A stretch of 29,258 nt of DNA from Chlamydiota bacterium. Lineage in GTDB: Bacteria > Auribacterota > Tritonobacteria > UBA1439. A program made the translations under genes and the position numbers. A model generated the notes under the pieces. It did not search any database, was not told the origin of the DNA, and was given only the letters and a program-made list of their open reading frames with translations. The stretch lies in contig JBAXOY010000026.1 of assembly GCA_037133055.1 (NCBI GenBank), positions 1 through 29,258 of the forward strand, written 5' to 3'. Of the stretch, positions 4,975 through 19,883 are shown piece after piece (position 1 is the stretch's first letter; the number at the start of each line of letters is the position of its first letter).

Positions 4975-5106
4975 AATGACAAATGACAAAATCCGAATGA
5001 CAAATGAAAGACCGCTACCCAATGAACAAGATCAAAACCGCCGGCGCCGGCATTTGAATTTTGTCGTTGGAATTATTATTGTCATTTGAGCTTTGCCATT
5101 TGTCAT
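4975..5106. repeat. AT-rich heptamer (AATGACA-type) tandem repeats in inverted orientation
   Basis: Left units aatgaca aatgaca aaatccg aatgaca aatgaaa. Arm 4976-5002 matches the reverse complement of 5080-5106 at 22/27 positions. Confidence 0.85.
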
Positions 5107-6122
5107 CGCCGTTCCCCCGCCAGGTCGGCGATCCTGCAGACGAGATCGGGATAGCTCATCCCGGCGGCCGCGGCGGACCGGGCGAGCCCGGCGTCGGGGG
5201 CGATGCAGGGGTTCGGGTTCACCTCGAGCACGTACGGGACCCCGTCCCGGCCAAGGCGTATGTCCACCCGGGCGTACCCGTCGCAGGAAAGCGCGCGGTA
5301 CGCCGCGAGCGCGGCCTGCTTCACCCGCGCCTCCGCCGCGCGCGGGAGCCGCGCCGGGCAACGAGGCGCGGTGCGCGCGTACTCCTCGCTTCCGGGGACC
5401 CATTTCGCGCGATAGTCGCAGATCCGCGCAGCGCCGCGGGACATGCGCCCCATCTCTATCTCCGAGACCGGGAGGATGAGGGGCTTCAGCGCCCCGAGGA
5501 TCGACACGTTCAGCTCGCGGCCGTCCACGTACCGCTCGACGAGGGCCGGCTGACGGTAGCGCGCGTGGATTCGACGGCACCTCGCGGAGAGCTCGCGGCG
5601 GTTCCTCACGAACGCGTCGCGGCCGATGCCGATGCTCGCGTCCTCCCTCACCGGCTTCACGAAGAGCGGGTAGCGCATCCCCGCGGGCAACGCCAGGGGC
5701 GGCTCACCCGCGCAGACGAAATGCGGCGGCGTCGGGATCCCTCCGGCGATGAAAAGCGCCTTGGCGAGGGCCTTGTCGAGCGCGATGCCCAGCGCCAGGG
5801 GGCCGCATCCCGTATGCGGCATCCCGAGAAGATCGAGAAAGGCGCAGGCGTGCATCTCGCAACGGCTTTCCCCTCCCGCCCCCTCGCAGAGATTGAAGAC
5901 GAGCCGCGGGCTCGCGGCGGCGAGCCGCCGCATGAACGCCCCCGCGCTCCGGCGCATCGGGAGCAGGAAGGCATGACGGCCGCGGGCGGCGAGCGCATCC
6001 CGCACGCTGCGCGCATCGCGGGCGACACTTTCATTCGCCTCCCGCTCCGCGTCGGGGATTTCCCCGCGCGGATGATACCCGTTGTAGACGACGGCGATGC
6101 CGCCCGAGCGCTTCGCATTCAC
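5103..6122 (-). CDS. D-Ala-D-Ala ligase-like ATP-grasp enzyme (non-canonical), copy 1
   Basis: Motifs VFNLCEG, PHTGC...DKALAK, FVKPVREDASIGI, LVERYVDGRELNV, YARVDIRL, LEVNPNP. GTG start with a purine-rich SD. Confidence 0.85.
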   Translation of the reverse strand: MNAKRSGGIAVVYNGYHPRGEIPDAEREANESVARDARSVRDALAARGRHAFLLPMRRSAGAFMRRLAAASPRLVFNLCEGAGGESRCEMHACAFLDLLGMPHTGCGPLALGIALDKALAKALFIAGGIPTPPHFVCAGEPPLALPAGMRYPLFVKPVREDASIGIGRDAFVRNRRELSARCRRIHARYRQPALVERYVDGRELNVSILGALKPLILPVSEIEMGRMSRGAARICDYRAKWVPGSEEYARTAPRCPARLPRAAEARVKQAALAAYRALSCDGYARVDIRLGRDGVPYVLEVNPNPCIAPDAGLARSAAAAGMSYPDLVCRIADLAGERR

Positions 6123-6190
6123 GTCCCCGATTCCTCCGCCTCCGGCCGACCCCCCTCCAGTATAGCGCGCGGGGTGGGGATTCTGACAGG

Positions 6191-6253
6191 ATTTTCAGTT
6201 TCGATTTTCAGGAATTTCAGTTTCAGATGGAGGTGATTATTACTGTGATTAAT
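6191..6253. repeat. Degenerate TTTCAG hexamer repeats and a GTGATTA duplication in the divergent spacer
   Basis: tttcag tttcga ttttcag gaa tttcag tttcag, then gtgattattact gtgattaat. Confidence 0.55.
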
Positions 6254-6256
6254 CGT

Positions 6257-6285
6257 TTGCCCCGCTCCGCACTACGTGCTATAGT
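6257..6285 (+). promoter_or_regulatory. Sigma70-type promoter with extended -10
   Basis: TTGCCC (6257-6262), 17-nt spacer, TATAGT (6280-6285) preceded by TG at 6277-6278. Confidence 0.65.
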
Positions 6286-6291
6286 ATGGGC

Positions 6292-6735
6292 ATGAACTGC
6301 AAAACAAATATCGCGCGCCTCTTCGCCGCGGCGGCGGCCGTGAGTGCGTGTGTCGGCGTCGTTCCTCTCTGTCGCGCGCAGGTCCCTACCGGCCCCATCG
6401 CTCCGCTCAAGAAGATGGAGTTCAAGACGGTCGACCCGCTCGGGGGCGCGAAGCTCCCCTCCGCGGCTCCGGGCGCCGGCTCCGCCTCTCCCGGGGGCGC
6501 CGCGGACAGTCCGATTGCGGTGAGAAAAGCGGGCTCCGCCTACTACTCCGATTCGGCCGCGAGTCAGCAGACGGGGGTGAGCGGCGGGGGCCCCGCCTAC
6601 AGCTGCCCAATGACCTCGCGTCAGCCGATCCGGGGGCATGGGGGCTTCACGGGGTATTCGGACTCCGGCAACAGGCGCGGAGCTCAGAAGGCCTGGAGCG
6701 GCAATGCATCGGATGTAAAAAACATGTATCGATAA
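6292..6735 (+). CDS. Hypothetical secreted low-complexity (G/S/A-rich) protein
   Basis: Signal-peptide-like N-terminus (IARLFAAAAAVSACVGVVPLCRA|Q). ATG 6292 chosen over 6286 because of the promoter position. Confidence 0.65.
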   Translation: MNCKTNIARLFAAAAAVSACVGVVPLCRAQVPTGPIAPLKKMEFKTVDPLGGAKLPSAAPGAGSASPGGAADSPIAVRKAGSAYYSDSAASQQTGVSGGGPAYSCPMTSRQPIRGHGGFTGYSDSGNRRGAQKAWSGNASDVKNMYR

Positions 6736-6760
6736 GCCGCGCCCCTCGGGAAGGGAACAG

Positions 6761-7093
6761 ATGCGCACACGCATAGTCGTTGTCGTTCTCGCCGCATGCA
6801 TCCTGTGCCCGGCGCCCCACGCGCTCGCGCAATGGACGCCCCGCAAGATCGCCCGCGCGCCCCTGCAACGCGGCCCGTTGAAATCTCCTTCGTACCGCGG
6901 GCAGCGCGGCCCGGTGCAGTCCCGGAAGGCGAACGCCTCAGGCCCCATAGTCGGGAATCCGGTAACGCCCCGCGGGATACTTCCCCAGGACGCCGAGTGG
7001 CGTAATTACGAAGCGTATGTCGGGTACAAGGCGTTCGACGCACAGACCTCGGACTCATCCCGTATAGATAGGGGCGGACCCATACCGTGGTAA
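6761..7093 (+). CDS. Hypothetical secreted protein, 110 aa
   Basis: Signal peptide MRTRIVVVVLAACILCPAPHALA|Q; SD AAGGGA upstream. Confidence 0.65.
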   Translation: MRTRIVVVVLAACILCPAPHALAQWTPRKIARAPLQRGPLKSPSYRGQRGPVQSRKANASGPIVGNPVTPRGILPQDAEWRNYEAYVGYKAFDAQTSDSSRIDRGGPIPW

Positions 7094-7136
7094 TCGCGCC
7101 GGTGCGCGCCGGAGCCGGATCATCGAGGTGTGCCCC

Positions 7137-7520
7137 ATGGACAATCGGCGGATGGAACATCTGAGACAGCAGCTCCTTTCCCTCCGGGAAAATATTCAGG
7201 GAGAGGTGGCCAGCCTCCAGCGCGACTCGCTGAGCCAGTCGCCGAGGGAGCAGTCGGGCGACCTCTCGGGCTACTCGACCCATCTCGCCGACACGGCGAG
7301 CGACTCCTACGACCGCGAGTTCACCATCTCCCTGGCGTCGCGCGAGCAGCAGGTCCTGAACGACGTGGACACGGCGCTCGCCAAGATGGGCACCGACGAG
7401 TACGGCATCTGCGAGATCTGCGCGCACCCGATCGACGAAACACGCCTTGCGGCGGTGCCCTACGCGCGGCTCTGCCTGCAGTGCAAGGAACGCCAGGAGA
7501 AGTCCCGGGCGCCCGCATGA
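7137..7520 (+). CDS. DksA/TraR C4-type zinc-finger family protein
   Basis: Coiled coil with HLADTASD tip, then YGICEIC...RLAAVPYARLCLQC. GAGGTG SD before ATG 7137. Confidence 0.9.
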   Translation: MDNRRMEHLRQQLLSLRENIQGEVASLQRDSLSQSPREQSGDLSGYSTHLADTASDSYDREFTISLASREQQVLNDVDTALAKMGTDEYGICEICAHPIDETRLAAVPYARLCLQCKERQEKSRAPA

Positions 7521-7897
7521 GATGCGTCGTCCGCGCCGCCATCCCGATCATCCTCCCGATCGCCTGCCTCGCCGCCGGGCTTGCGCGCCCCGCGCGCGCG
7601 GCGGATCCCGACCGGAACACCGTGGCCACCGTCACGGCGACGCTCCGGTCGGTTGACGCCGCGCGGGGCGTCATCGCCGTCGAAAGGCGCGGGGGGGGGG
7701 GCGCGGAGTTTCGCGTGGACGCCGTGAAAACCCTGATCTTCAAGGGAATACGGACCCTCTCCCTCGACGAACTCGCGCCGGGGATGCGGCTCGATATAGA
7801 CTACCGCCCCGAGGCGGGCGGGGCGATACCGCTCGCGGCATGGGTCGAGGTGACGGGGCCGGAGGGGAACGCGGTCGCTGACCGCAACAAGGACTAG
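7517..7897 (+). CDS. Hypothetical secreted protein, probable small OB-fold (DUF5666-like)
   Basis: ATGA overlap with the upstream stop; signal peptide ending ARA|A; 'LSLDELAPGMRLDIDY' pattern. Confidence 0.65.
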   Translation: MRCVVRAAIPIILPIACLAAGLARPARAADPDRNTVATVTATLRSVDAARGVIAVERRGGGGAEFRVDAVKTLIFKGIRTLSLDELAPGMRLDIDYRPEAGGAIPLAAWVEVTGPEGNAVADRNKD

Positions 7898-7991
7898 ATT
7901 TTTCACCACGAAGAGCAGCGCGCGTCGCAGAGGGATTATTCCGGCCCCGCAAAAGAAGGCGTTGGCCGGCGGAAGAAAGGAAGGGGCAGCG

Positions 7992-8690
7992 ATGCCGGGC
8001 GAGTACATGACGATCAAGGATGCCGCGAAGTTCCTGAACATGAGCGCCGAGGCGGTCAGGCTTCTCGCCGAGAAGGGCATTTCCTCGCGCGACAAGAACG
8101 GGAAGATGATGGTGAAGACGGAGGCGATACGGGACTGGCTCCACAGGGGCATCAGGGACTTCGACCCCGCGCAGCTCAAGATGTTCGAGAAGGACTACCG
8201 CGAACAGGTGACGCGCATCGCGCCCCTCCTGGACCCGAAGTGCATCAAGATGAAACTCGCCGGGGCGGCTAAAACGGGCGTCATCGCCGAGCTCGTCGAC
8301 GTGCTCGTCGAACACGGCGGCGTGGATGCGAAGCACAGGACAAAGATCATGGCGGCCGTCATCGAGCGCGAGCGCATGTGCAGCACCGCCCTCGCGGACG
8401 GCGTGGCGATCCCCCACCCCCGCGAGCCGCTCACGGGGATCATAAAGAAGCCCCGCCTGGTGCTCGGCCTATCCTGGAAGGGGATCGATCTCGAGGCGTT
8501 CGACGGCCAGCTCACGCACGTGGTCGTCCTCCTCTGCACGCCGCGGATCGACATGCATCTGCAGATACTGGCGCGCCTCACCAAGCTCCTGCGCAGCACA
8601 AAGCTGCGGGTGGCCATGTGCCGGGCGAAGGACGAGCAGGCCGCCATCGACGTTTTGGACGCGTACGAAAAGCAGAGCCTGGGCATCTGA
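7992..8690 (+). CDS. PTS EIIA (fructose/nitrogen-regulatory type) with N-terminal excisionase-like HTH
   Basis: N-terminal YMTIKDAAKFLNMSAEAVR; EIIA motif RERMCSTALADGVAIPHPR with the phospho-His; HLQILARL. Confidence 0.88.
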   Translation: MPGEYMTIKDAAKFLNMSAEAVRLLAEKGISSRDKNGKMMVKTEAIRDWLHRGIRDFDPAQLKMFEKDYREQVTRIAPLLDPKCIKMKLAGAAKTGVIAELVDVLVEHGGVDAKHRTKIMAAVIERERMCSTALADGVAIPHPREPLTGIIKKPRLVLGLSWKGIDLEAFDGQLTHVVVLLCTPRIDMHLQILARLTKLLRSTKLRVAMCRAKDEQAAIDVLDAYEKQSLGI

Positions 8691-8804
8691 CGCCCGCGGC
8701 TATTTTCCTCCACCAAGGCACCGACACCCAAATCACCGGGACAACTTATCCGGCGAATTCGGCGTCCGCGGTGGCATTTTTTTTATAAAAATGCAAAATT
8801 TATG

Positions 8805-8833
8805 TTGACATAAAAGTGTCATGGCATTAATAT
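8805..8833 (+). promoter_or_regulatory. Strong sigma70-type promoter for the RHH-ATP-grasp-GNAT-kamA operon
   Basis: TTGACA (8805-8810), 17-nt spacer, TAATAT (8828-8833), within an AT-rich island. Confidence 0.75.
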
Positions 8834-9005
8834 GTTGCAAGATGCGGCATTTTTTTATGCCATGTGCGACATAACTATGTATTTACGTCAATATGTCACA
8901 GGGTAATTTCACGCGCGGGAAGCGCTTCTCCCGCCCTCCGGGGCGAGCGGAGCATGCGGAGAGGGGCACCGCCCGCGCACCAGCAGACGAAAGGCGCGCG
9001 CACGC

Positions 9006-9200
9006 ATGAAGAAGAGAACGACCATCTACATGGATGAGGAGCTTCACAAGAAGGTGCGGATGCTGGCCATCAGGGAGAACACGACGATGGCGAAGATATT
9101 CGTGCACGCCCTGCGGCGCTACCTCGCCGAGATACAGGAAGACCCGCGGCAGGAGAAATTCGCGCAGATACTGGCCGCCCCGGAAAAGGTCATCCGCTGA
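9006..9200 (+). CDS. Ribbon-helix-helix (CopG/Arc/MetJ-like) DNA-binding protein
   Basis: KRTTIYMDEELHKKVRMLAIRENTTMAKIFVHALRRYL is a typical beta-strand plus two-helix RHH pattern. Confidence 0.85.
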   Translation: MKKRTTIYMDEELHKKVRMLAIRENTTMAKIFVHALRRYLAEIQEDPRQEKFAQILAAPEKVIR

Positions 9201-9211
9201 AAGGCCCGGCA

Positions 9212-10234
9212 ATGCGTATCGCGCTCACCTACAACCTCAAGCCGCAGGCATCGCCGGTCCCGCGCCAGGACTACTTCGCCGAGTGGGACGATTCCGCCAC
9301 CATCGACGCGGTTTCGGCGGCGCTCGCGGGCGGGGCGCACGAGGTCGTCAGGGTCGAGGCGGACCGGGACCTCGCGGAGAACCTTAAGGAAGCGAAGCCC
9401 GACATCGTCTTCAACATCGCCGAGGGTATCGATTCCCCGAGCAGGGAGTCGCAGGTTCCCGTCATCTGCGAGATGCTGGGCATCCCCTATACCGGCTCCG
9501 ACGCGTTCACCCTGGCGGCCTGCCTCAACAAGGCGCGCGCCAAGGAGATCATGTCGTACTACCGCATCCCCACGCCGGCGTTCCGGGTCATGGCGTCGCC
9601 GGACGAGCCCCTGAACGGCATGAAATTCCCCGTCATCGTCAAGCCGCTCTGGGAGGGGTCGAGCATGGGCATCCGGGACGACTCCGTCGTGACCGCCCGG
9701 GGGGAGCTCCCCGCGCGCCTCGAGCGGATCCTCGGCGAGTACCGCCAGCCGGCGCTCGTCGAGTCGTTCCTCGGCGGAAGGGAGTTCACCGCGGCGCTCC
9801 TCGGCAACGACGGGGGTATGCGGGTGCTGCCGCTCGTCGAGATTGACTTCGCGACGCTCCCGGAAGGAGCGCACCGCATCTACTCCTGGGAGGCGAAATG
9901 GGTCTGGGACAGGCCCGAGGCGCCGCTGAAGATATTCTCGTGCCCCGCCTCCGTCGACGGCGCGCTGCAGCGCGGCATCGAGGAGGTCTGCAAAAATGCA
10001 TACCGCACGCTCGGGTGCCGGGACTGGTGCCGCATCGACGTGCGCCTGGACGGACGCGGCGCGCCGCACGTGATCGAGCTCAACCCCCTTCCCGGCATCC
10101 TCCCCGATCCGGACGAGAACTCGTGCTTCCCGAAGGCGGCGCGGGCCGCGGGGATGAGCTACGAGGCCCTGGTGCGGGAGGTGCTCGCGATCGCGTGCGC
10201 GCGCTGCGGTGTGGGGAAAGACGGGGCGCGATGA
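9212..10234 (+). CDS. D-Ala-D-Ala ligase-like ATP-grasp enzyme (non-canonical), copy 2
   Basis: Motifs MRIALTYNLK, VFNIAEG, IPYTGSD, NKARAK, IVKPLWEGSSMGI, GREFT, RIDVRLD, IELNPLPG. Confidence 0.88.
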   Translation: MRIALTYNLKPQASPVPRQDYFAEWDDSATIDAVSAALAGGAHEVVRVEADRDLAENLKEAKPDIVFNIAEGIDSPSRESQVPVICEMLGIPYTGSDAFTLAACLNKARAKEIMSYYRIPTPAFRVMASPDEPLNGMKFPVIVKPLWEGSSMGIRDDSVVTARGELPARLERILGEYRQPALVESFLGGREFTAALLGNDGGMRVLPLVEIDFATLPEGAHRIYSWEAKWVWDRPEAPLKIFSCPASVDGALQRGIEEVCKNAYRTLGCRDWCRIDVRLDGRGAPHVIELNPLPGILPDPDENSCFPKAARAAGMSYEALVREVLAIACARCGVGKDGAR

Positions 10235-10716
10235 GCGAGGTGTCCATCCGCCCCGCGACGCCCGACGATCGCGAGGCCATCGCGCGCCTGCTCGCCGGCG
10301 TGGAGGAGTTCAGGGCCGACGAGGCCGCGTGCGCGCTTGAGCTCTTTGACGAATCGTTCGGGGGAGACGGGAGCGACGAGGACTACCACATCCTCTGCGC
10401 GGAGGCCGGGGGGAAGGGGATCATCGGCTTTGTCTGCTGGGGAAAGATCCCCCTGACGCGGGCCGCGTGCGATCTCTACTGGATCGTCACAGACCCGGCC
10501 TTCCGGCGAAGCGGCGTGGGGAAGCGCATGCTGCGGCACCTCGAGGGGGTGCTCCGGGAGAAGGCGCTCACGATCCTCGTCGCGGAGACGTCGTCGCTTT
10601 CCTCGTACGCGCAGGCGCGGGCGTTCTACCTGCAGGAGGGTTTCGCCGAGGAGTCGCACATCAGGGATTTCTACGGGCCCGGCGATGACCGGGTCATCTA
10701 TTGCAAGAGGTTTTGA
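10231..10716 (+). CDS. GNAT-family N-acetyltransferase
   Basis: ATGA overlap with the ligase stop; acetyl-CoA motif A 'DPAFRRSGVGKRML'; 'ARAFYLQEGF'. Confidence 0.88.
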   Translation: MSEVSIRPATPDDREAIARLLAGVEEFRADEAACALELFDESFGGDGSDEDYHILCAEAGGKGIIGFVCWGKIPLTRAACDLYWIVTDPAFRRSGVGKRMLRHLEGVLREKALTILVAETSSLSSYAQARAFYLQEGFAEESHIRDFYGPGDDRVIYCKRF

Positions 10717-10768
10717 GCACGACATTGATCGCTCCCCGCACGGGGGAGTTTCTAGGGAGGAGGCTACG

Positions 10769-11953
10769 TTGCAGCCGCAAGTAAGTGACACGATGTGGAA
10801 AAACGTGCCGGAGACGGACTGGAACAACTGGAAATGGCAGATGCGGAACCGGGTGTGCGCACTCGGCGAGCTCGCGCGCGCGATCACGCTCACCCGCGAC
10901 GAGGAGGCTGGCATTCGGCGCGAGGAGGACCGGCTGCCGATGGCGATCACCCCCCATTTCCTCTCGCTCATCGACCCCGACAACCCCGAGTGCCCCCTGC
11001 GGCGGCAGGTGGTCCCGCGCATCGAGGAGCACTTCCTCTGTTCCCGGGACATGGAAGACCCGTGCGGGGAGGAGAAGGACTCCCCCGTCCCGAGGGTCGT
11101 CCACCGCTACCCGGACCGCGTGCTTCTGATCGCGACCGAGGCATGCGTCTCCTACTGCCGCTACTGCACCCGGAAGCGCATCGTGGGCACCACTCAGCAG
11201 AGCATCAGCCAGGAGGAGCTCGCGCGGGCATGCGAGTACATCGCCGGCAACAGGAAGATACGCGACGTGCTGGTCTCGGGCGGCGACCCTCTCGTCTTCT
11301 GCGACGACCGGCTGGAGGGGATCCTCAAGGCGCTCCGCGCGATCAGGCACGTGGAGGTCATCCGCATCGGGACGCGCGCCCCGGTATTCCTCCCGCAGCG
11401 CGTCACGCCGGAGCTCACCGCGATGCTCAGAAAGTACCACCCGCTCTACCTGAGCATCCACTTCTCGCACCCGCGCGAGCTGACGCCCGCGACCGCGCGC
11501 GCGTGCGAGATGCTCTCCGACGCCGGGATCCCGCTCGGGAGCCAGACCGTCATCCTCAAGGGGGTCAACGACAACCCGTCGACGGTCAAGAAGCTCATGC
11601 ACGACCTGCTGCGGGCGCGCGTCAGGCCGTACTACCTCTACCAGTGCGACCTCGCGGTCGGCACCGAGCATTTCCGCACGCCGATCTCGACCGGCATCAA
11701 CATCATCGAGAAGCTGCGCGGCCACACCTCCGGCTACGCGGTCCCGACCTTCGTCATCGACGCCCCAGGGGGCGGCGGGAAGATCCCCCTCGGCCCGAGC
11801 TACTTCATCTCCCTCGTCGAGGGGCGGGTGGTGCTCAGGAACTACGAGGGGAAAATCTTCGAGTACCCCGAGCCGATGGACGCGCGGAGCCTGAGGCTCA
11901 AGCTCAGGAAAGAGGAGATGCCGGAAAAGGCGCTCCCCATCCTCGTGACCTGA
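10769..11953 (+). CDS. kamA: Lysine 2,3-aminomutase (KamA-family radical SAM, PLP)
   Basis: Motifs HRYPDRVL, CVSYCRYCTRKR (CxxxCxxC), SGGDP, RIGTR, YYLYQCD, VIDAPGGGGKIP (PLP Lys). TTG start at 10769 after GGAGGAGG; ATG 10793 is an alternative. Confidence 0.92.
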   Translation: MQPQVSDTMWKNVPETDWNNWKWQMRNRVCALGELARAITLTRDEEAGIRREEDRLPMAITPHFLSLIDPDNPECPLRRQVVPRIEEHFLCSRDMEDPCGEEKDSPVPRVVHRYPDRVLLIATEACVSYCRYCTRKRIVGTTQQSISQEELARACEYIAGNRKIRDVLVSGGDPLVFCDDRLEGILKALRAIRHVEVIRIGTRAPVFLPQRVTPELTAMLRKYHPLYLSIHFSHPRELTPATARACEMLSDAGIPLGSQTVILKGVNDNPSTVKKLMHDLLRARVRPYYLYQCDLAVGTEHFRTPISTGINIIEKLRGHTSGYAVPTFVIDAPGGGGKIPLGPSYFISLVEGRVVLRNYEGKIFEYPEPMDARSLRLKLRKEEMPEKALPILVT

Positions 11954-17150: not shown

Positions 17151-17225
17151 CAGGAGCCGTACGCACTAATTTTCGTGCAGGCCCGCGGCGCCTGCGCTAT
17201 ACTACCATCCGCCGGAGAGGCCGCT

Positions 17226-17945
17226 ATGCCCGATGCAGAGCATTGTGTCCGCCTCGAGGAGCGGCTGGGCTACCGATTCAAGGACCGCCTGCTCCTGCTC
17301 GAGGCGCTTTCCCATTCCTCGTACATGCACGAAAATCACGCCGAGGGCGCCTCGAGCAACGAGCGCATGGAGTTCCTCGGCGACTCCGTGCTGGGCCTCG
17401 TCATCACGCGGCGCCTGTACACGCGGTACCGCCGGCGCGCCGAGGGCGAACTCACCCTGATGCGATCGGTGCTGGTGAGCCGCGACACGCTCGCCGGCAT
17501 CGCGGCGGGGCTGGGGCTCGGCGAACACCTGTACCTCGGGAAGGGCGAGTCCGCGAGCGGGGGGCGCGAGAGGAAATCGAACCTCGCGAACGCCCTCGAG
17601 GCGGTGCTCGCGGCGGTTTACCTCGACGGCGGGTTCGACGCCGCGCGCGGCGTCACCACGGCGCTCTTCGCGGACGCCCTGGCGCGGATCGACGCGACGC
17701 GGGACAGCCTGAACTACAAGAACATGCTCCAGCAGTACGGCCAGGAGCGCGGGCAGGGGTCTCCCGACTACGTGCTGACGGCGAGCCGCGGCCCCCAGCA
17801 CCGGAAGACATTCGAGGTGGAGGTGCGGCTCGGAGGCGCGCCGCTGGGGCGCGGGGCGGGAGCGAACAAAAAAGAGGCCGAGCAGGAGGCCGCCAGGGCG
17901 GCGCTCGCCGCGGTCGGGGAGCGCGCACCCGGCGGGGCGGGTCGA
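17226..17945 (+). CDS. rnc: Ribonuclease III (no in-frame stop; end coordinate is inferred and the frame continues into ilvD)
   Basis: Motifs [37 protein letters not shown], ds[12 protein letters not shown]...GPQHRKTF...[18 protein letters not shown] before ATG 17226. Confidence 0.9.
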
Positions 17946-17964
17946 GGCCCGGGGGAGGATACCG

Positions 17965-18162
17965 ATGGTCGCGTTCACCGTGCTGTTTTTTCTGCTGCTC
18001 GTATCGGTGATGACCGCCGTGGCGATCATGGCGGCGCTGAAGGCGGTGGATTTCTTCGACGCGAGCCGGGCGTTTTACCGGCGCATGGACGAGATCCACT
18101 ACAGGCTCGAGGAGATCATCCGCCTGCTCGAGGCGGGGGGCGGGGAGAAACGGGGAAAATGA
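17965..18162 (+). CDS. Small hypothetical single-TM protein (65 aa)
   Basis: GGAGGA SD; hydrophobic helix then amphipathic helix; host-like codon usage; its stop overlaps an ilvD-frame ATG (ATGA 18159-18162). Confidence 0.7.
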
Positions 18163-19883
18163 AGGGGTCCGGGATGAAGAAACATGCCAGGAAACCGGCG
18201 CGCCGCCCCGCGGGCGACGCCGCGCCGCGGCTGCGGCACGAGGCGGTCACGAAGGGGATCGAGCGCATGCCCCACCGCGCGCTTCTCTTCGCCACCGGCC
18301 TCGGGAGGCGCGACCTCGAGAAGCCGTTCATCGGCGTCGCGACCTCGTGGAACGACCTCATCCCCGGGCACACGCACATGCGGAGCCTCGAACGCTTCAT
18401 CGAGCGGGGGATATGCGCCGCGGGCGGCGTCCCGTTCTTCTTCGGCATCCCGGGCATCTGCGACGGGATCGCGATGGGGCACGCGGGGATGCGCTACTCG
18501 CTCCCGCTGCGCGAGCTCATCGCCGACTCGCTGGAGTGCGTGGCGCGGGCGCACGCGCTCGACGGGCTCGTGCTCCTCACGAACTGCGACAAGATCACCC
18601 CGGGGATGCTCATGGCGCTCATGCGCCTCGACCTCCCGGGCATCGCGGTCACCGCGGGGCCGATGCTCGCGGGAGACTGGCGGGGCGGGAAGCTCTCGCT
18701 GGTCAAGGACACCTTCGAGGCGATCGGCCGTTTCAAGGCGGGCGAGATCGACGAGGAGGAGGTCAGGGAGCTCGAGATGCGGGCGTGCCCGGGGCCGGGC
18801 TCCTGCCAGGGGATGTACACGGCGAACACGATGGCCTGCCTGACGGAGGCGCTGGGGCTGTCGCTCCCCGGCTGCGCCACCGCCCCCGCCGTCATGGCGG
18901 AAAAGCTCCGCATCGCCCAGGAGAGCGGGGAGCGGGCCGTCGCGCTCGTGCGCGAGGGGCTCAGCGCCCGCATGATCGCGCGCCCGCCCGCCTTCTCGAA
19001 CGCCATCCGCGTCGACATGGCGCTCGGGGGATCGACGAACACCGTCCTGCACGTCCCCGCGATCGCGCACGAGGCGGGGATCGAGCTCCCGCTCGAACTA
19101 TTCGACCGGATATCGAAGACCACGCCGCATATCGCGAGCATGCAGCCGGGGGGAACCTGGTGCCTCGAGGACCTGCACCGCGCGGGGGGGATCCCGGCGG
19201 TCCTCTCCGTGCTCGCCCCGAAGATCGGGGAGAGCCCCACCGTGAGCGGCCGCGGGATACTCGAGATCGCCAGGGGGGGCGTGGTATACGACCGCGAAGT
19301 GATCAGGCCGCTCGACAGGGCCCACGGCCCCGAGGGCGGGATCGCGATCCTGACGGGGAACATCGCGCCGCTCGGGGCGGTCGTCAAGCAGACCGCGGTA
19401 AAACCCGCGCTCAGGCGCTTCAAGGGGCGCGCGGCGGTCTTCGACGGCGAGGAGGACGCGATGAGGGCCGTCATGGGCGGGAGGGTCAAACCCGGGACGG
19501 TCCTCGTGATTCGCTACGAGGGGCCGAAGGGCGGCCCCGGCATGCGGGAGATGCTGTCGCTCACCGCGGCGATCGTGGGGCTCGGACTCTCCGACGACGT
19601 CGCGCTCATCACCGACGGGAGGTTCTCGGGCGGCACCAAGGGCCCCTGCATCGGGCACATCTCGCCGGAGGCGATGGAGGGCGGGCCGATCGCGGTGCTG
19701 CGCGACGGGGACCGGATCGAGATCGACATACCGGGAAGGACCTTGAAGGCCGCCCTCGGCGAGCGGGAGCTCTCCGCCCGGCTGAAGGCATGGAAGGCCC
19801 CCGCCGCAAAGGTGAGCACGGGCTACCTCGCGCGGTACGCGAAGTCGGTCACCTCCGCGTCGACGGGAGCGATATGCACATAA
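18159..19883 (+). CDS. ilvD: Dihydroxy-acid dehydratase
   Basis: Motifs [58 protein letters not shown]. Start is 18159 or 18174. Confidence 0.95.

Follow-up and report, generated by a model that had tools for sequence, protein, structure and literature searches.

The radical S-adenosylmethionine (SAM) lysine mutase PylB feeds the ATP-grasp ligase PylC, N-acetylglutaminylglutamine amide (NAGGN) is an acetylated dipeptide solute, and glutathionylspermidine synthetase carries out the ATP-dependent ligation of a polyamine. Here we analyse a stretch of 29,258 nucleotides (the window) from a Chlamydiota bacterium that GTDB places in the Auribacterota (assembly GCA_037133055.1, contig JBAXOY010000026.1, positions 1 to 29,258 of the forward strand). 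It encodes two ATP-grasp ligases with the fold of D-alanine–D-alanine ligase (Ddl), here called LigA and LigB, together with an acetyltransferase of the GNAT family and a lysine 2,3-aminomutase, KamA. The pyrrolysine, NAGGN and glutathionylspermidine enzymes belong to different families, and none is among the top structure or profile matches of these proteins; NAGGN is mentioned as a solute in the available part of PMC1224877.

Closer likenesses are found in three described systems. AblA/AblB, as presented in the available parts of PMC1224877 and PMC11337218, shares with this locus a KamA-type lysine 2,3-aminomutase co-transcribed with a GNAT. It differs in that the 266-position AblB model is unmatched by the 160-residue GNAT family found here, in that two obligate ATP-grasp ligases are present here, and in that no mechanosensitive channel gene is attached. 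The Ddl/Van family has in common the fold (TM-score up to 0.78), the ATP/Mg residues and the predicted dimer surface, but in our ligases the donor pocket is rebuilt (no E15 motif, H63 to E) and the LigB acceptor loop is changed; they fall below all curated cut-offs, no linkage to mur genes was seen and a canonical Ddl coexists with them. In phevamine A biosynthesis by HsvABC, according to the available part of PMC6187163, a modified spermidine is linked to amino acids by a pair of ATP-grasp enzymes; these and an amine-capping transferase yield a small amino-acid/amine conjugate without an NRPS (non-ribosomal peptide synthetase). The parallel is drawn from gene roles; the transferase there is an amidinotransferase rather than a GNAT, and there is no aminomutase.

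As in ATP-grasp (NRPS-independent) clusters, a building-block enzyme and a tailoring transferase are stable genomic partners of the ligases analysed here. The tests run place the locus outside the Ddl, AblAB and EpmAB systems, and it represents a real, widespread and apparently undescribed pathway assembled from known enzyme folds. A 2009 survey of ATP-grasp amidoligases by Iyer and colleagues reportedly may mention these operons. No description was found in the literature searched (listings and the beginnings of abstracts, with most subscription journals outside the scope), nor in the available parts of PMC11337218, PMC12361552, PMC12397197, PMC3543383, PMC6701809, PMC6187163, PMC1224877 and bioRxiv 10.64898/2026.05.15.725110. 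We favour, with modest confidence, the reading that KamA, then a LigA:LigB pair and then the GNAT would make a small N-acetylated beta-lysyl amide.

A conserved module of two ligases, a GNAT and KamA

The genes and their putative control elements have the following window positions:

5103-6122, minus strand: ligB, encoding LigB, a Ddl-fold ATP-grasp ligase of subfamily B (PF07478), a displaced module member
8805-8833, plus strand: sigma-70-type promoter TTGACA-17-TAATAT, presumed to serve the RHH-ligA-GNAT-kamA operon
8868-8880, plus strand: palindrome GACATAACTATGT, predicted and likely to be the RHH operator
9006-9200, plus strand: gene for a ribbon-helix-helix (RHH) protein (PF01402, E 3.4e-4)
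9212-10234, plus strand: ligA, encoding LigA, a Ddl-fold ATP-grasp ligase of subfamily A (PF07478)
10231-10716, plus strand: gene for the GNAT, a 161-residue acetyltransferase of the PDB 2R7H family (PF00583)
10769-11953, plus strand: kamA, encoding a KamA-type radical SAM/pyridoxal phosphate (PLP) lysine 2,3-aminomutase, with a likely TTG start at 10769

A preliminary description of the window had named the five open reading frames, and all were found where it placed them, with agreeing Pfam and NCBIfam assignments. It was also right about the ATGA overlap of ligA and the GNAT gene (10231-10234), the operon's own promoter and the second ATP-grasp gene (ligB) about 3 kb from the operon on the other strand. 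Its kamA start, ATG 10685 within the GNAT gene, probably gives way to TTG 10769, which lies five bases 3′ of GGGAGGAGG, because the alignment of relatives begins there.

Linkage of these genes was followed in 41 genomes of this phylum, in 101 genomes and 40 loci of a second phylum and in 20 loci from other groups; related genomes are not independent, and co-occurrence counts overstate significance. A LigA ortholog is encoded in 27 of the 41 genomes, each time with kamA on the same contig and no more than 2.8 kb away (27/27), and the GNAT family occurs in 25 of these 27 versus 1 of the 14 LigA-negative genomes. Three of those 14 (G017, G025 and G032) carry a strong kamA without the ligases or the GNAT. 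In the second phylum, where 41/101 genomes have the ligase family, the GNAT is present in 30 of the 41 ligase-positive and 1 of the 60 ligase-negative genomes. All four genes are found in 19 of its 40 loci, a subset in 18 and distant paralogs only in 3; the five genomes of this phylum without kamA in the locus all have kamA elsewhere. In 15 of the 20 loci from other groups (Gemmatimonadota, Bacteroidota/Ignavibacteria and deltaproteobacteria among them) the genes are contiguous in the order ligA-ligB-GNAT-kamA, the remaining five being truncated, frameshifted, reordered or probably fused. Phylogenetic profiling, the check proposed together with the idea of a four-gene coupling, therefore bears that idea out: the LigA, LigB, GNAT and KamA genes are one conserved module, in which the distribution of the GNAT goes with the ligases and not with kamA. 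Across phyla, the module has no fifth conserved gene, recurring neighbours being lineage synteny.

Three relatives (G002, G003 and G006) share the layout of the window, in which ligB has moved to the opposite strand, and ligB is on a separate contig in four other genomes of the family. In a FastTree phylogeny of 115 sequences, with moderate deep support, the LigA and LigB sequences of different phyla fall into two separate clades, and the LigB of the window groups with operon-linked LigBs; judged by sequence, it belongs to the module despite its displacement. When operons are split, LigA remains with kamA, and LigB adjoins the GNAT gene (L054, L055 and L056) or lies about 2 kb from it (L057). 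Gene fusions join A to B (P0125), B to the GNAT (L110, L122, L126 and L129) and A to A (P0121-P0124, P0126 and L102), with no adjacent B at L102 and P0121-P0124.

Ligase, KamA and GNAT sequences compared with known enzymes

Databases label both LigA and LigB as D-alanine–D-alanine ligase, as they do most of the at least 7,873 clusters of the wider ligase family found with an E value of 1e-40 or lower; the Atlas clusters have a bacterial share of 89-100%. Against the Ddl cut-offs of 243 bits (NF002378) and 245.65 bits (TIGR01205), LigA scores 177.7 and 137.9 bits and LigB 163.8 and 130.9 bits, all below. We mapped both ligases on Escherichia coli DdlB, whose residues we take to have the ATP/Mg, donor-site and acceptor-site roles given here. 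Both retain K97, K144, E187, K215, R255, D257, E270 and N272, with E270 replaced by D in 16/66 LigB sequences. In the donor site, GGxSxE (E15) is absent from both ligases, and H63 is replaced by E in 45/45 LigA and 38/39 LigB-like sequences. The preliminary description had reported the loss of GGxSxE and LHG and the presence of FN(L/I)xEG and E(V/L)NPxP, and the motifs are as it said (FNIAEG and ELNPLP in LigA, FNLCEG and EVNPNP in LigB); their correspondence needs amending, because E(V/L)NPxP stands for ExNxxPG and FNxxEG for LHG. The genome also has a canonical Ddl on contig C1, which retains the E15 and H63 motifs, and a MurF on contig C27. The earlier view that these are not D-Ala-D-Ala ligases is upheld by the scores below the family cut-offs, the absent donor motifs and the canonical Ddl elsewhere in the genome. 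With the family's clusters mostly labelled as such, a large set of annotations is therefore probably wrong.

Each subfamily has its own signature: AE[WF]D, FNxAEG, RE, EGSS, NPLPG and S304 in LigA (87 sequences), and an ED[AG]S loop, NPNP[DC] and an acceptor loop with AG in LigB. LigA gains conserved E24, D26, R78 and E79, retains GSS, and has equivalents of G276 and S281 in 84/87 and 78/87 sequences; it thus keeps the Ddl acceptor-carboxylate serine, which LigB has mostly lost. This combination agrees with a two-amine donor and an amino acid as acceptor. In LigB, EGSS has become ED[AG]S, G276 is D or C, S281 is A or S and L282 is an invariant G. Such changes point to a different acceptor, which probably differs from that of LigA and may have no carboxylate.

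The same loops (EGSS to ED[AG]S, G276 to D/C, E270 to D in 16/66) could instead mean reduced or no catalysis, a point against assigning LigB a reaction of its own. LigA alone might then be catalytic, with LigB as a structural or regulatory subunit and a single new amide bond in the product. The changed P-loop, oxyanion glycine and acceptor loop of LigB are in keeping with this, as are the degenerate first half of some A+A fusions (P0124, P0126 and L100) and the duplication of LigA where the locus is without B (L093, L094 and L102). We nevertheless regard it as improbable: the seven ATP/Mg/transition-state residues of LigB (K117, K156, E203, K240, R285, D287 and N302) are kept in 66/66 orthologs, LigB has invariant residues of its own (W241, N304 and G312), and B-type relatives such as LigC and the rhizobial plasmid ligases, described below, occur in loci without LigA.

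Predicted models of LigA (pLDDT 95.2) and LigB (pLDDT 92.4) have Ddl as their best fold matches. A heterodimer had been suggested, with co-folding as the check, and it is plausible in view of the A+B fusion P0125 and of a predicted LigA:LigB complex. The complex model scored 0.73 versus 0.00 for the best control, its runs agreed in at least 83% of contacts and partner pLDDT was at least 76; the 0.73 mark was reached by 116/157 solved pairs versus 2/215 mismatched pairs. Because Ddl homodimers have been solved, this pass may reflect only memory or likeness.

KamA, the only kamA-family product found in the genome, scores best on the AblA model, above the glutamate, arginine and EpmB models, and matches PDB 2a5h with 474 bits. 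Its YQCD and VIDAP motifs align to D293 and D330 of 2a5h, which confirms the two lysine-binding aspartates claimed earlier. R135, D294, D331 and K338, equivalent to R134, D293, D330 and K337 of 2a5h, are invariant in 28/28 linked copies, and the equivalents of R134, D293 and D330 match in 26/27 further copies; we take these residues to be the lysine-binding aspartate pair, an arginine and the PLP lysine. A KamA of the lysine type is supported by these sequence comparisons.

The GNAT matches PDB 2R7H with E 3.3e-52 by profile, the next match being at 1.5e-9, and its nearest solved relatives after 2R7H are RimI/N-terminal protein acetyltransferases. The entry is named ‘putative D-alanine N-acetyltransferase of GNAT family’; it belongs to the same family, its name is itself putative, and no function for it was found in the literature searched. 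Invariant acidic and aromatic residues are E31, E37, Y52, Y83, W84, E119 and D152. The AblB model TIGR03827 was matched neither by the GNAT nor elsewhere in this genome or in four other module-bearing genomes, in a search in which 2/14 controls exceeded the cut-off. The preliminary description had taken KamA and the GNAT for AblA and AblB, and this pairing does not hold: AblB is ruled out by the absent match, and the GNAT is a separate 160-residue family that follows the ligases, not kamA.

These comparisons bear on the most conventional account of the locus, in which KamA and the GNAT make N-epsilon-acetyl-beta-lysine as AblAB does, and the neighbouring ligases are chance companions, spare enzymes for D-Ala-D-Ala (or D-Ala-D-X). 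KamA is indeed closest to AblA, and the databases do name the ligases accordingly. We give this account very little credence, as it is contradicted by gene linkage (the GNAT co-occurs with the ligases and is missing from the three genomes with kamA only), by the want of an AblB match and by ligases that reach at most 178 bits versus a cut-off of 243, are without the Ddl E15 and H63 motifs and coexist with a canonical Ddl.

Proposed pathway and candidate products

The pathway that we propose draws directly on genes, linkage, fusions, residue patterns and promoter conservation, and from these we infer every chemical step. On strong grounds, KamA would turn L-lysine into beta-lysine. LigA would spend ATP to activate the carboxylate of a donor, probably beta-lysine, seated in a re-acidified pocket (E24, D26, E71 and E79), and couple it to an amino acid in the Ddl-type acceptor site that LigA retains. 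Less securely, LigB, as a heterodimer with LigA, may form a second amide, its acceptor carrying no carboxylate at the Ddl site; a diamine, a polyamine or a side-chain amine of beta-lysine would be examples. The GNAT, which follows LigB and fuses to it, would then acetylate a remaining amine. The product is likely to be a short peptide or a peptide-amine conjugate. If this is true, the module would supply a new beta-amino-acid metabolite as well as new ligases that form beta-amino-acid amides. Its four enzymes also make up a pathway open to direct reconstruction, and the module offers a purpose for many kamA genes outside fermentation, AblAB and EF-P contexts.

Several observations weigh against this scheme. 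KamA scores 508.7 bits on the AblA model TIGR03820, just below the cut-off of 525.4, and it does not extend over the C-terminal part of the 2a5h enzyme. In 2/27 and 11/41 ligase-positive genomes no GNAT was found, and acetylation would therefore not be universal. Across phyla, the module has no conserved neighbour for transport, export or release, which weakens a role as an osmolyte or secreted product.

A more specific version of the proposed pathway concerns its acceptor. Polyamine synthesis is the sole recurring metabolic neighbour among second-phylum loci: genes for agmatinase and pyruvoyl arginine decarboxylase lie directly upstream on the same strand in 8/40 loci, with deoxyhypusine-synthase-like genes in 4, hinting at a polyamine acceptor, for which phevamine A offers a precedent. 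A beta-lysyl-polyamine conjugate is accordingly conceivable, in which beta-lysine would be joined to putrescine, agmatine or homospermidine and N-acetylated, the subunits of a heterodimeric Ddl-fold ligase catalysing successive amide bonds; we hold it only tentatively. Among the counts that speak against it, arginine decarboxylase is not commoner with LigA in this phylum (21/27 LigA-positive versus 11/14 LigA-negative genomes) and is mildly enriched in the second (27/41 versus 26/60, among kin that are not independent). Four genomes of family f6 have LigA but not the decarboxylase, and speB-pdaD of the present genome is on contig C3, unlinked to the module. The eight polyamine-linked loci, whose LigAs are 52-97% identical, may also represent one inherited arrangement. 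Were such a conjugate made, anaerobic and uncultured bacteria would commonly contain a polycation metabolite that has so far gone unseen.

The ligases might instead attach beta-lysine, subsequently acetyl-capped, to a macromolecule, be it a protein (at a side chain or a terminus), the head group of a lipid or the peptidoglycan stem. This would suit the RimI-like relatives of the GNAT, the loss in LigB of the loop for a small acceptor's carboxylate (the glycine at L282 could admit a bulky acceptor), the SAM methyltransferases that flank several loci and the want of a conserved transporter. We think it unlikely, because no target gene is conserved beside the module, both predicted folds are those of Ddl-like small-molecule ligases, and a separate canonical Ddl and MurF are present with no mur gene among the neighbours scanned. 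For one protein target, elongation factor P (EF-P), the genome's own sequence reads TPGNWR, the modifiable lysine is absent, and the best match to the EpmA (genX) model is an ordinary 513-residue lysyl-tRNA synthetase. Modification of EF-P is thereby excluded for this genome, and a role of the module in EF-P supply, also considered, was ruled out. KamA scores 232 bits on the EpmB model, for which the cut-off is 369. The EF-P gene itself (L072:1486-2052, on contig C1 of this genome, G000) encodes a PGNW loop with Asn in place of the usual Lys/Arg, presumably of an unmodified type.

A catabolic or protective role, with the ligases and the GNAT masking beta-lysine or a diamine for use or detoxification, would be in line with the M20 peptidases, amidohydrolase and gamma-glutamyltransferase that adjoin L101, L105, L117 and L118; autoregulation by a small repressor, discussed below, would suit a substrate-induced pathway. 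Such neighbours occur in 4/40 loci only, and we consider this role decidedly improbable. Searches for lysine fermentation in this genome, which is 92% complete, gave no kamD match, a weak negative because the control matched nowhere, and one divergent, signal-peptide-like BKACE match. That the window is without kamDE, kdd, efp and epmA, as stated in the preliminary description, agrees with our Pfam scan of 42 window open reading frames, among which none of these families was found.

Related ligases in other genomic contexts

The genome encodes a third paralog, LigC (L001:6154-7173, on contig C37), which is B-type, 36% identical to LigB and standalone; in G004 and G007 its position is about 5-6 kb upstream of RHH-ligA. 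In G018 the gene before the ligase encodes a protein of about 345 residues, as does the gene before a related ligase in G013 and G020; by eye this protein resembles the Peptidase_Mx match on contig C20. LigC and this protein are possibly a separate ligase/peptidase system. Upstream of ligC in this genome (L001:179-5775) are genes for three paralogous, secreted-looking proteins that are glycoside hydrolase-like by eye.

Rhizobial plasmid ligases that are 35-39% identical to LigA were rejected as orthologs; they form their own clade on the B side and have other contexts. Distant plasmid members of the family adjoin genes for diamino acids or small peptides, such as ectB in Sinorhizobium meliloti, and the distant ligases of rhizobia have major facilitator superfamily exporters, peptide ABC transporters and peptidases nearby. 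Although these members are not orthologs, their plasmid contexts favour small, amine-rich products for the ligase family as a whole.

Other arrangements were seen in passing. A Thioflavicoccus mobilis plasmid (L082:3656-9137) combines a diaminobutyrate transaminase, SbnA, an ornithine-cyclodeaminase-like (SbnB-like) protein and a Ddl-like ligase with a convergent lysine-type kamA, and is a candidate diamino-acid peptide cluster. On a Bradyrhizobium plasmid (L083:3282-8047), a kamA-like gene accompanies genes for a gamma-glutamyltransferase, a seven-transmembrane (7TM) protein and a Ddl-like ligase; its product is without both lysine-binding aspartates and the PGGGGK (PLP-lysine) motif, and its annotation as ‘lysine 2,3-aminomutase’ looks wrong. 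Fusions of about 805 residues (P0128-P0141 and P0143), one of them from Elongatibacter sediminis, join an L-amino-acid-ligase-type ATP-grasp domain (PF18603) to a B/C-type Ddl-like ligase, and SAM methyltransferases are fused to Ddl-like ligases in both phyla (L068:5369-7582, L106:6387-8327 and L107:4772-6688).

Putative operon control and neighbouring genes

The promoter matches the consensus at 10/12 positions. Both it and the palindrome are kept in the 7/7 family genomes that were aligned, among which the upstream neighbour is of two kinds. At the same site, 7/8 family genomes carry the palindrome pattern, the contig of the eighth (G001) beginning at ligA, and the reversed-pattern control gave 0. 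Further ACATA/TATGT half-sites at 8801, 8808, 8831 and 8892 make this region the genome's only cluster of at least four half-sites within 100 nt. The RHH protein, 86-92% identical in three relatives and seen in nearest relatives only, is likely to be an autoregulator that would act at the ACATA-N2-TATGT palindrome to repress the operon. The palindrome recurs exactly (L145; contig C38, 8525-8537) about 60 bases 5′ of dnaA. We take this second copy to be chance or strain-specific, because the search of the other 8 genomes showed none at dnaA. Three RNA runs examined for expression yielded no more than short pieces of relatives.

Between ligB and the RHH gene, the Pfam scan gave two unknowns, a DksA-like protein, one further unknown and a helix-turn-helix (HTH)-PTS IIA protein, and these intervening genes recur in near relatives only. 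The last of them (7962-8690), an HTH_17 domain fused to a PTS IIA domain, is just 5′ of the operon promoter and is kept in near relatives. The intergenic region upstream of ligB (6187-6224) contains short direct repeats, with GATTTTCAG present three times and a 16-nt unit twice. Farther along the window, positions 17175-19883 form a 902-residue open frame that spans an RNase III gene and ilvD (dihydroxy-acid dehydratase) with no stop between them, and that is either a true fusion or two in-frame genes.

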